Shown one piece after another: positions 50,453-55,937 of a stretch of 64,000 nucleotides of DNA. The position numbers and the translations under genes are program-made. Location of the stretch: the NCBI RefSeq assembly GCF_054482525.1, contig NZ_CM137006.1; one strand, given 5' to 3'. The notes below the pieces were generated by a model, which worked only from the letters and a program-made list of their open reading frames with translations, had not been told where the DNA came from and ran no database searches. Numbering within the stretch: the first letter of the stretch is position 1; each line of letters opens with the position of its first letter.

Positions 50453-50707
50453 TACCGTTGTCTCTCTTCCAGGTTTACTCCTGATAGAAAGTCATCGGCA
50501 CTTGACGGTAATTACTTACGACCAAAAACCTCTTTGCGTCACATTTTTACAACAATTATGGCAGAGAAGAATAATGCCATTGGAATGAAGAGAGTAACGA
50601 ATGATTAAACTGGCTAAACCGAATGACGAAAAATTCTGGAAAACAGCACGCAATTTCGTCAGGTGATTATTTTCGTCCCTAAGGAAACCACATAGGATGC
50701 TCACGGG

Positions 50708-50763
50708 TGCCTGAGACTTTCTGTTTTCAGGCTAACCGGGAATCAGAAAGACGAAGGCCCCGA
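50708..50763 (-). ncRNA. sokB: Putative Sok antisense RNA of the hokB locus (approximate position)
   Basis: Inferred from hok/sok architecture: antisense to the hok mRNA leader just upstream of mokB; the segment holds hairpin-forming sequence (gcctgagactttctgttttcaggc). Boundaries not determined. Confidence 0.25.
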
Positions 50764-50792
50764 CCGATATTTCTATCAACCGAGGCCAACGA

Positions 50793-51000
<208 letters not shown>

Positions 51001-51245: not shown

Positions 51246-51489
51246 ATAACCTCCATGGTTTATCGAATCTTATGTTCGATTTGAACGTTATACGTTGGTT
51301 TATTTTGATACCGTTGATGAGATCAAAGATCGGGTGAATTGATTAAAAATAAGCCAGATGGACGTATGGGCAAGGATTATGGTTTTATTTGTCATACAAA
51401 TAAATATAATAGGCGCTTCCGATGTAGACCCGTATTCTTCGCCTGTACCACGGGTCGGTTTTAGTACAGGCGTTTTCTTTAAATATCCT

Positions 51490-52020
51490 TCAGGAACGTT
51501 TACGCGGCATCATGCGTAGAAGTGTGTTGTCCTTCCAGAAATAGTGGTGTGCCAGTGCAGCCGCAGCGTGCAACCCGATGACAAAATATCCCAGATTCGC
51601 CAGCGTCTCATGCCACGACTTTAAGCTATCAACCCGTTCGAAATTGGCCTCTGATGCATAAGGCATCGTCATACCAAACGCAAACCACGGGTTACCCCGG
51701 TTATACATCATCACCAAACCAATCACTGGCAGCGCAATAAACAGGAGATAGATCACCAAATGTCCCAAATGCGCCAGTCCCGTCATCATCGGTTTTGGCT
51801 TAGGTATAATCGGCGGGGTTGGGTATTTCAGCCTTAACAAAAGACGAACCACCATCAGCACGAGAATTGTGATGCCACAGGAAACATGAATCATGTTGAT
51901 GAGTGGCCGATCGCTACGTGGGAAGAAACCACGAAACTCCATTGCGCAATACGCTGCGATAACCAGTAAAAAGACCAGCCAGTGAATGCTGATTTGTAAC
52001 CTTGAGTATTTATTTTCCAT
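51490..52020 (-). CDS. cybB: Cytochrome b561
   Basis: 176 aa from MENKYSRLQISIHWLVFLLVIAAY...; four TM helices with conserved His. Confidence 0.85.
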   Translation of the reverse strand: MENKYSRLQISIHWLVFLLVIAAYCAMEFRGFFPRSDRPLINMIHVSCGITILVLMVVRLLLRLKYPTPPIIPKPKPMMTGLAHLGHLVIYLLFIALPVIGLVMMYNRGNPWFAFGMTMPYASEANFERVDSLKSWHETLANLGYFVIGLHAAAALAHHYFWKDNTLLRMMPRKRS

Positions 52021-52208
52021 AACATTTCCTGCTTTAAAACAATTTGCCGTTAACATAACGAGCTTTTCTTAAAATTTCATTAAATATTGTTCACCCGTTT
52101 TCAGTACGTTACGTTTCACGGCAAGAATGTAGATTGCCCATCCCGCCATCCTGGTCTAAGCCTGGAAAGGATCAATTTTCATCCGAACGTTCCTGACAGG
52201 AGAAGACC

Positions 52209-53210
52209 ATGAGTAAAGTTGGTATTAACGGTTTTGGTCGTATCGGTCGACTGGTGTTGCGTCGATTACTTGAAGTCAAAAGCAACATAGACATTGTTGC
52301 TATTAATGATCTCACTTCCCCAAAAATTCTCGCCTACCTGCTGAAACATGATTCAAACTACGGACCGTTCCCCTGGAGCGTTGATTTTACGGAAGATTCA
52401 CTTATCGTTGATGGAAAAAGTATCGCGGTTTACGCCGAAAAAGAGGCTAAAAATATTCCATGGAAAGCGAAAGGCGCAGAAATCATTGTCGAATGTACTG
52501 GCTTTTATACCTCCGCCGAGAAATCGCAGGCGCACCTTGATGCTGGTGCGAAGAAGGTGTTGATTTCCGCCCCTGCCGGTGAAATGAAAACCATCGTTTA
52601 TAACGTCAATGACGACACACTGGATGGCAACGACACCATTGTTTCCGTGGCGTCATGCACCACTAACTGCCTTGCGCCGATGGCCAAAGCCTTGCATGAC
52701 AGTTTCGGGATAGAAGTCGGCACGATGACGACCATTCATGCCTATACCGGCACTCAGTCACTGGTGGATGGCCCGCGTGGTAAAGATCTACGCGCTTCAC
52801 GTGCAGCGGCAGAAAATATCATTCCCCACACTACAGGTGCGGCAAAAGCCATTGGTCTGGTGATCCCAGAACTGAGCGGCAAACTGAAAGGTCATGCGCA
52901 ACGCGTACCCGTGAAAACCGGTTCGGTGACTGAACTGGTGTCTATTCTTGGAAAAAAAGTGACTGCCGAAGAAGTGAACAACGCGCTTAAAAAGGCGACA
53001 AACAATAACGAGTCATTTGGTTATACCGATGAAGAAATAGTCTCTTCTGATATCATAGGCAGCCATTTCGGGTCGGTGTTTGATGCCACGCAAACCGAAA
53101 TTACCGCCGTGGGCGATTTACAACTGGTGAAAACGGTCGCCTGGTACGATAACGAATATGGCTTCGTCACGCAGCTTATTCGCACCCTCGAAAAATTCGC
53201 TAAACTCTGA
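52209..53210 (+). CDS. gapC: Glyceraldehyde-3-phosphate dehydrogenase, intact second copy
   Basis: 333 aa uninterrupted; NAD-binding [10 protein letters not shown] and catalytic SCTTNC motifs present. Confidence 0.85.
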
Positions 53211-53216
53211 CGCGCA

Positions 53217-53245
53217 AAGGCGGAGAGAAAAGCCTCCGCCTCTTT
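53217..53245. terminator. Hairpin between convergent gapC and aldA
   Basis: aaaggcggag agaaaagc ctccgcc followed by tcttt. Confidence 0.5.
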
Positions 53246-53251
53246 CACTCA

Positions 53252-54691
53252 TTACGACTGTAAATAAACCACCTGGGTCTGCAGATATTCATGCAGGCCA
53301 TGTTTACCATCTGCGCCGCCAATACCGGATTTACGCCATCCGGCGTGGAAGCCTTGCATAGCTTCGAAGTTTTCACGGTTAATGTAAGTTTCACCAAACT
53401 TCAGCCCTTTAATGGCTTTCATCGCGACGTTCAAATTTTGGGTATAGATTGATGAGGTCAGGCCGTAATCACTGTCATTAGCCATTGCGATAGCCTCTTC
53501 CAGCGTGTCAAATGCGACCAATGGCAGCACCGGGCCAAAGGTTTCCTCGTGCATAATCGACATTTCCTGGCGAACATCCAGTAGCAATGTCGGCGGATAA
53601 TAATATCCTTTCCCCTCTACCGCTTTGCCACCCAACGCCACTCTCGCCCCTTCTTCTACTGCGCGCGCCACTTTTTGCTCGACCCTTTCCAGCGCCGCGG
53701 CGTTAATCAACGGCCCCATCGCAATGTCGTTGCGTTCAGCGGGGTTACCAAATTGAACCGCCTGCATCGCTTCACCCAGCCGATTGACGAACTGATCATA
53801 AATGCCTTTCTGTACATAAACACGTTCTGCACAGTTACACACTTGCCCACTATTAATGACGCGTGAATCAACGATGGCTTTGACTGCCAGTTCAAGATCG
53901 GCATCGTCCATTACGATAGCTGGTGCTTTACCACCCAATTCCAGACACACTTTGGTGATGTTTTTCGCCGCAGTCGCCATGATCTTTTCACCTGCAGAGA
54001 CGCTGCCTGTCATACTGACCATTGCGACCTTTGGGTTACCCGCCAGTTCTTGCCCAACGGTTTCACCACGCCCCAGAACAAGGTTAAACACGCCGCGCGG
54101 AAGGCCTATTTCATCGACGATTTTGGCGAATGCAATCGCATTGTTTGGCGTAAATTCACTGGGTTTAATGACAATGGTATTACCGGTCAAAAGAGCGGGA
54201 GCCATTTTGCGGGCAATGAGGAAGAACGGGAAGTTCCACGGCAGAATGCCGGTAGTCACACCAAGCGCACGTTTAAACAGAAGAATATTTTCTCCTGGAC
54301 GATCGCTTTGAATAATCTCGCCCTCGTAACGCCGTGCCCACTCCGCCATGTAATCGATATAGTCCGCAGTAAAAGCCACTTCGACTTCAGCCAGCTGCTG
54401 GATCTTGCCCCCTTCTTCAACAATCAGCGCACTGATTTCACTGGCGCGTTCGCGGATCCCGGCGGAGATTTTGCGCAACCAACTGGCGCGTTCAATGGCA
54501 GGCAATGCTTCCCATTCTGGTTGTGCACGTTCTGCTGCATCGATTGCCTTACGGGCATCCTCGGCCTGACCATCGGGAATGCGGGAAATGACAGCCTCAG
54601 TAGCAGGGTTTACCACATCAATCCATGCGTCTCCACGCCAGGTAACAAACTGTCCATCGATATACATAGGATGTTGAACGTGTACTGACAT
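53252..54691 (-). CDS. aldA: Lactaldehyde dehydrogenase
   Basis: 479 aa; ALDH family with the catalytic Cys region. Confidence 0.9.
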   Translation of the reverse strand: MSVHVQHPMYIDGQFVTWRGDAWIDVVNPATEAVISRIPDGQAEDARKAIDAAERAQPEWEALPAIERASWLRKISAGIRERASEISALIVEEGGKIQQLAEVEVAFTADYIDYMAEWARRYEGEIIQSDRPGENILLFKRALGVTTGILPWNFPFFLIARKMAPALLTGNTIVIKPSEFTPNNAIAFAKIVDEIGLPRGVFNLVLGRGETVGQELAGNPKVAMVSMTGSVSAGEKIMATAAKNITKVCLELGGKAPAIVMDDADLELAVKAIVDSRVINSGQVCNCAERVYVQKGIYDQFVNRLGEAMQAVQFGNPAERNDIAMGPLINAAALERVEQKVARAVEEGARVALGGKAVEGKGYYYPPTLLLDVRQEMSIMHEETFGPVLPLVAFDTLEEAIAMANDSDYGLTSSIYTQNLNVAMKAIKGLKFGETYINRENFEAMQGFHAGWRKSGIGGADGKHGLHEYLQTQVVYLQS

Positions 54692-55688: not shown

Positions 55689-55902
55689 GGTTCCTCCTTA
55701 TCGTTCCCTTAAGAATACTGCGCGAGATAATAATGAGAAGCGGAGCACTCTGAAAGGAGGAAGTCGTATTTCCTTAACCGCCACTCCGCAAGCCTGCCAT
55801 ATCTTTTAAGGAAATGCTGTAGATAAACATTATTCATCTTGCAGCTGAGAATTGTATTTTTCTGAATTCCTGAATTTTTGCCCTTACCGTTTTAGAATTA
55901 AT

Positions 55903-55937
55903 AAAAAACCCGGCGCTAAATGCTTACCGGGTTTTAG
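55903..55937 (-). terminator. Intrinsic terminator 3' of hrpA
   Basis: aaaacccgg ... ccgggtttt stem followed on the minus-strand transcript by a run of six T then ATT. Confidence 0.6.

Follow-up and report, generated by a model that had tools for sequence, protein, structure and literature searches.

The gene at the center of this analysis, gapC, lies on the forward strand at positions 52209-53210 of the window, that is, the entire stretch of 64,000 nucleotides of contig NZ_CM137006.1 (assembly GCF_054482525.1) that was analyzed. It is a single open reading frame of 333 codons that opens with ATG and closes with TGA at 53208-53210 and encodes a type I NAD-dependent phosphorylating glyceraldehyde-3-phosphate dehydrogenase (GAPDH). 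The listing of the frames in the window contains no in-frame start further upstream, because each listed frame begins at the first start codon past the preceding stop. A Shine-Dalgarno sequence, AGGAG, can be read on the same strand at 52198-52202, 6 nt 5' of the ATG, and is invariant in the 11 Escherichia coli strains that we compared. On one side, gapC is divergent from cybB (51490-52020, reverse strand), and the 188 bp between the two genes (52021-52208) are the presumed gapC promoter region; across the 11 strains, this spacer has a mean column identity of 98%. On the other side, gapC converges on aldA (53252-54691, reverse strand). In the wider neighborhood, ydcF lies past aldA, and ydcA, hokB, and trg lie past cybB.

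The 41-bp gap between the convergent gapC and aldA contains a GC-rich hairpin of 8 bp (GGCGGAGA / loop / UCUCCGCC) at 53218-53241. RNA folding of the segment 53205-53255 gave -15.5 kcal/mol (z = -2.25), and the hairpin is likely to be a terminator common to both genes, as predicted from this fold. A consensus terminator scan of 51900-53400 gave no call at the hairpin, because its T tract is short. Several minor features surround the locus. An alternative open reading frame of cybB extends over 51490-52056 on the reverse strand, with an ATG at 52056 and 188 aa, against the 176 aa starting from 52020 in the PGAP annotation; if the longer form is real, the cybB-gapC spacer shrinks to 152 bp. Just downstream of the 3' end of cybB, at 51416-51479 on the forward strand, there is a gathering-level Rfam match to the RydC sRNA (92.5 bits), and another one, to the sok antitoxin RNA (110.6 bits), is located at 50705-50856, also on the forward strand, within the hokB/sokB type I toxin-antitoxin locus.

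The best megablast match of the window gapC is the gene of E. coli PCN033 annotated as "gap: type I glyceraldehyde-3-phosphate dehydrogenase" (WP_000048644.1), to which it is 100% identical and for which the PGAP annotation gives identical coordinates; together with the frame listing, this bears out the uninterrupted frame of 333 residues that had been claimed in the initial annotation. The similarity extends well past the gene, with a single substitution in 7,697 bases when the 9 kb around gapC were compared by blastn. Between ydcF and hrpA, PCN033 carries, in addition, about 700 bp of inserted DNA with an IS200/IS605 tnpA; the corresponding place in the window, at about 55900-55905, has no such insertion. 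Given that one substitution and the insertion specific to PCN033, the window cannot be the PCN033 assembly itself; judging from these comparisons, it represents a very close relative of PCN033, nearly identical to it but a distinct strain or assembly. The arrangement cybB-gapC-aldA agrees with that in the annotated genomes of PCN033, K-12, and nine other strains, as is to be expected of an orthologous gapC locus.

At the level of the protein family, the assignment is clear. GapC of the window matches the NCBIfam model of type I GAPDH (TIGR01534, EC 1.2.1.12) with 447 bits (E=3.9e-134), well above the curated equivalog cut-off of 367.2 bits, and residues 3-325 are aligned to positions 1-330 of the 330 in the profile. 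Two Pfam domains, PF00044 (Gp_dh_N, residues 3-102) and PF02800 (Gp_dh_C, residues 155-313), cover the protein end to end. All the functional residues that we located align with those of GapA in the pairwise alignment. These are the dinucleotide-binding motif of the Rossmann fold, GxGxxG, in NGFGRIGR at codons 7-14 (52227-52250, forward strand), which coincides with the NGFGRIGR of GapA; Asp34; the catalytic Cys150 (codon TGC, 52656-52658, forward strand) within SCTTNC at residues 149-154; the catalytic His177 (codon CAT, 52737-52739, forward strand); Thr180; Arg195 and Arg198; Arg232; and WYDNE at 312. His177 follows Cys150 by 27 residues, which gives the catalytic pair of a type I GAPDH. The catalytic and NAD-binding motifs to which the initial annotation had pointed are thus all in place, within matches to the type I model and to the Pfam domains.

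The reaction course can be outlined from what holds for the family and for a crystallized enzyme 99% identical to GapC. Cys150, activated by His177, would attack D-glyceraldehyde 3-phosphate to form a thiohemiacetal; a hydride would then pass to the NAD+ held in the Rossmann domain at the N-terminus, with its GxGxxG (residues 9-14) and Asp34, leaving a thioacyl enzyme, the phosphorolysis of which would release 1,3-bisphosphoglycerate.

GapC shares with E. coli GapA (PDB 1S7C, 1GAD, and 1DC4) the fold, the reaction, and the SCTTNC and GxGxxG motifs, with 47% identity over the full length; the GapA sequence used for this comparison was confirmed to match PDB 1S7C from end to end. It is, however, a paralog encoded at a separate locus and not a duplicate of GapA. 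GapC reached 302.5 bits against the model of GapA-type GAPDH (NF011954 / PRK15425), the cut-off of which is 662, so that this narrower class was rejected. The 60 best PDB matches of the window GapC do not include E. coli GapA. Among these 60, the best non-self matches (E from about 1e-144 to 1e-120) are chains titled just "glyceraldehyde-3-phosphate dehydrogenase", and several of the respective entries are presumably GAPDHs of Gram-positive bacteria (Streptococcus, Staphylococcus).

The fold alone leaves room for a main activity other than that of a GAPDH, such as that of an erythrose-4-phosphate dehydrogenase (Epd/GapB) or of the GAPDH involved in arsenate resistance. The GAPDH paralogs of E. 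coli are known to diverge functionally, Epd being a case in point: it shares with GapC both the superfamily and the domain architecture, and GapC does produce sub-threshold matches to the models of Epd (277 bits with TIGR01532, 280 bits with NF010058) and of the ArsJ-associated GAPDH (307 bits with NF033735). Nevertheless, these scores are far below the respective cut-offs of 530, 539, and 450, whereas the equivalog model of type I GAPDH is passed, and the neighbors of gapC are cybB and aldA, with no arsJ. Biochemical data on a nearly identical protein argue in the same direction. EcGAPDH1 (PDB 7C5F, 7C5G, 7C5H, and related entries, about a dozen besides 7C5F) represents the BL21-type allele of the same gene, at the same locus and of the same length; 330 of its 333 residues are identical to those of the window GapC, including all the catalytic and cofactor-binding ones, and the three differences (I29V, K262Q, and N265T) put Ile29, Lys262, and Asn265 in the window against Val, Gln, and Thr in EcGAPDH1 and BL21. 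This enzyme oxidizes glyceraldehyde 3-phosphate (G3P) with NAD, with a KM for G3P of 0.73 mM, and was crystallized with NAD and G3P bound; the C150A mutant is inactive, and the activity of the wild type is about 8,000-fold that of H177A and about 38,000-fold that of C150S (PMC8615399). Furthermore, synthetic methylotrophic E. coli has been built with gapC of BL21 in place of gapA, and the follow-up proteomics searched for "GapC (BL21)" (PMC11611044, PMC11471845). Against this evidence, a different main activity appears very improbable. The family assignment and the assays of an enzyme that differs by three residues support the view that the window GapC would act as an NAD-dependent phosphorylating GAPDH, and the replacement of gapA by BL21 gapC in the engineered strains indicates that an enzyme of this kind can sustain flux through glycolysis or gluconeogenesis in vivo. 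At the level of the enzyme, then, the earlier suggestion that the strain has a working second GAPDH holds up, given that the C150- and H177-dependent activity of EcGAPDH1 is accompanied by the substitution of gapC for gapA in engineered strains.

The orthologous locus of K-12 MG1655 also lies between cybB and aldA, with 96.0% nucleotide identity to the window gapC, and is annotated there as a pseudogene ("frameshifted; internal stop"). The alignment reveals the two lesions behind this annotation, namely, A115T, which turns Lys39 into TAA, and the loss of one A from the A7 run (nucleotides 744-750 of the gene), which leaves A6 and shifts the frame; K-12 gapC also carries a missense change, R18G. 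The statement in the initial annotation that gapC is a split pseudogene in K-12 is thereby borne out, and the alignments with K-12 gapC and with gapA that it had proposed as a check show that the K-12 lesions are absent from the window and that the catalytic residues line up with those of GapA. Unlike the K-12 gene, that of the window has AAA (Lys) as codon 39 (52323-52325, forward strand), A7 at 52952-52958 (forward strand), and Arg18, so that it bears none of the marks of the K-12-type pseudogene and encodes the full protein.

A homopolymer is the classic site of sequencing errors, and the A7 run is the place in gapC where such an error could most easily create or mask a frameshift. It might be argued, therefore, that the open frame is an artifact of sequencing or assembly and that the actual gene is frameshifted as in K-12, from which it differs at this point by A7 against A6. 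However, the run is A7 in the window and equally in each of the 10 further intact alleles that were compared, and the entire gene is identical to that in the independent assembly of PCN033. The K-12 nonsense substitution, which is unrelated to the homopolymer, is missing from the window as well, and 41 alignment positions (40 substitutions and the indel) separate the window from the K-12 haplotype, so that a miscalled K-12 allele is not what we observe. We regard an artifact as exceedingly improbable and continue with gapC as a genuinely intact gene.

How common this intact state is could be gauged from the complete genomes of E. coli. Megablast found gapC in 5417 of the 5426 (99.8%), with a match spanning at least 80% of the gene in 5409 of them, and the identity at the best place is at least 95% in 5322 of the 5417 matching records, as befits an ortholog present throughout the species. 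To tell the alleles apart, megablast queries of 41-44 nt were used; at this length, any mismatch at the site of the lesion removes every possible 28-nt seed, and only genomes with the queried allele can be matched. The TAA allele at codon 39 was recovered in this way from 1155 of the 5426 genomes and the A6 frameshift allele from 1050, whereas the common haplotype with Lys39 was found in 3718. About 544 genomes matched neither of the codon-39 queries; one contributing cause is the SNP C111T, which breaks the seed and is present in the intact gapC alleles of O145:H28 and ECCNB20-2. The analogous search with the intact A7 allele gave no match and is uninformative on the frequency of that allele, the 28-nt seeds having probably been removed by low-complexity masking of A7; the frequency of intact alleles was accordingly gauged from the Lys39 query, the match lengths in a spread sample, and the annotations. 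Nine alleles taken evenly down the identity ranking (from 98.3% to 95.3%) carry, without exception, the annotation of an intact coding sequence, each with a protein accession of its own. All told, about 79% of the complete E. coli genomes are without the K-12 nonsense lesion.

Among the sources of the genomes with the TAA allele are humans, pigs, chickens, dogs, a housefly, a bullfrog, seawater, and sediment. Because the K-12-type lesions occur in about one-fifth of the complete genomes, many of them those of wild isolates, they look like a polymorphism of lineages rather than a product of domestication, at least as far as such allele counts can tell. By the same token, gapC is, on the evidence of these alleles, ancestrally intact and has remained so in the majority of the genomes; K-12 falls within a large minority clade that would have lost the gene. 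The initial annotation had taken intact gapC as helping to mark a strain other than K-12, and, with 96.0% identity to K-12 and 100% to PCN033, the strain is indeed a different one, but the marker is a weak one because the absence of the K-12 nonsense lesion is shared by about 79% of the complete genomes. The nonsense allele outnumbers the frameshift haplotype by about 100 genomes, a hint that the stop codon came first; seed-breaking SNPs are a possible alternative explanation of the gap between these counts.

Comparison of the 11 intact alleles provides a view of the selection that acts on gapC. They differ at 78 segregating nucleotide sites and 10 variable residues, none of which is catalytic, and the Nei-Gojobori dN/dS is about 0.04 overall and 0.01-0.05 between the window and each other allele, with dS reaching 0.21. 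BL21 gapC, for one, differs from that of the window by 39 nucleotides, mostly in synonymous positions. By the measure of these substitution ratios, the intact alleles are evidently under strong, long-term purifying selection. At the same time, gapC is about twice as diverged from K-12 as its flanking genes, and nearly all of this divergence is synonymous: in the segment 49209-56000, the divergence is 4.0% in gapC and 1.6% in aldA, 1.9% in ydcF, 2.1% in cybB, and 1.5% in trg. The spacers on both sides are unusually diverged from K-12 as well, with 5.9% (94.15% identity) between cybB and gapC and 9.8% between gapC and aldA. The excess divergence of gapC could stem from weak codon bias or from old recombinant allele classes. 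A weak level of expression would fit this pattern, and we infer it because of the four rare ATA codons, the GC3 of 0.49, and the roughly twofold, mostly synonymous divergence relative to the flanks.

The one serious rival of the interpretation that we favor is that gapC encodes a competent enzyme and yet is physiologically nearly silent and dispensable, a cryptic gene drifting to loss. Such a course fits the abundance of the nonsense allele, which has at least 1155 carriers among the 5426 complete genomes, some of them wild (from humans, pigs, poultry, dogs, seawater, and sediment), and it fits two events that involve IS1: in BL21(DE3), where gapC is intact, an IS1 that is absent from the window is inserted upstream, between cybB and gapC, and in another strain, SCPM-O-B-7615, the gene was shortened by an IS1-mediated deletion that removed the 3' parts of gapC and aldA. 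The cybB-gapC spacer would also agree with near silence, given that a scan of 51900-53400 with the sigma-70 consensus found no promoter-like site there, and the rare codons, like the high synonymous divergence, point to low expression. What this scenario does not lead one to expect is the value of dN/dS of about 0.04 across intact alleles as far apart as dS = 0.21, which shows a sustained purifying selection that a silent gene would not undergo, or the retention of gapC in 99.8% of the genomes, with intact frames in BL21 and in all nine of the full-length alleles sampled. [quoted passage not shown] A review by Espinosa-Urgel and colleagues recounts the finding of 1998. On balance, we consider it unlikely that gapC is nearly silent and on its way to loss.

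The interpretation that we favor, and in which we have high confidence, is that the window carries the intact ancestral chromosomal gapC of a PCN033-like E. coli strain other than K-12, a type I GAPDH gene with, presumably, an auxiliary role and conditional or weak expression, which was lost in the K-12 lineage. The losses by nonsense mutation and by IS1 make it clear that some lineages can do without gapC. Under this interpretation, GapC would serve as an auxiliary GAPDH that is weakly or conditionally expressed, and the K-12 lineage, along with the rest of the roughly one-fifth of the sequenced E. coli, would have lost it through a common nonsense mutation and a homopolymer frameshift. A lateral origin of the gene has been claimed in the literature. 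A more specific version of the ecological role can be entertained as a tentative, somewhat doubtful extension, in which gapC is a GAPDH specific to a niche, for example, cold fresh water outside the host, and its inactivation in about 20% of the genomes marks the ecological shift of one successful clade and not decay in the laboratory. Were this the case, the roughly twofold synonymous excess over the neighboring genes would stem from classes of alleles that have been maintained for a long time and would be more than an effect of weak codon bias.

The significance of these observations should not be overstated. The intact form of gapC is already known: a nearly identical enzyme has been crystallized and assayed, and the intact state outside K-12 is credited in later literature to the study of 1998. 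Beyond correct annotation, an intact gapC matters little. Still, there are two GAPDH genes in the strain represented by the window, as in most E. coli, which is relevant to gapA knockouts and to flux engineering in hosts other than K-12. A modest addition is that the gapC lesions of K-12 also occur outside the laboratory strains, which qualifies the older view that laboratory strains accumulated them.

A few further observations concern the mobility of the locus and of related genes. The insertion in BL21(DE3) and the deletion in strain SCPM-O-B-7615 suggest that IS1 has been repeatedly active at the gapC locus. We also considered plasmid-borne copies of gapC, because megablast listed five "plasmid" places, and rejected them: the E. 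coli matches in PLSDB are typed as non-mobilizable throughout, measure 4.7-4.9 Mb or 250-390 kb, and are taken to be mislabeled chromosome, with NZ_CP141089.1, NZ_OL790696.1, NZ_CP134663.1, and others being gapC-bearing records that resemble mislabeled chromosomes (4.7-4.9 Mb). In Pantoea, two megaplasmids of about 0.5 Mb carry a gap gene that is 74% identical to gapC.
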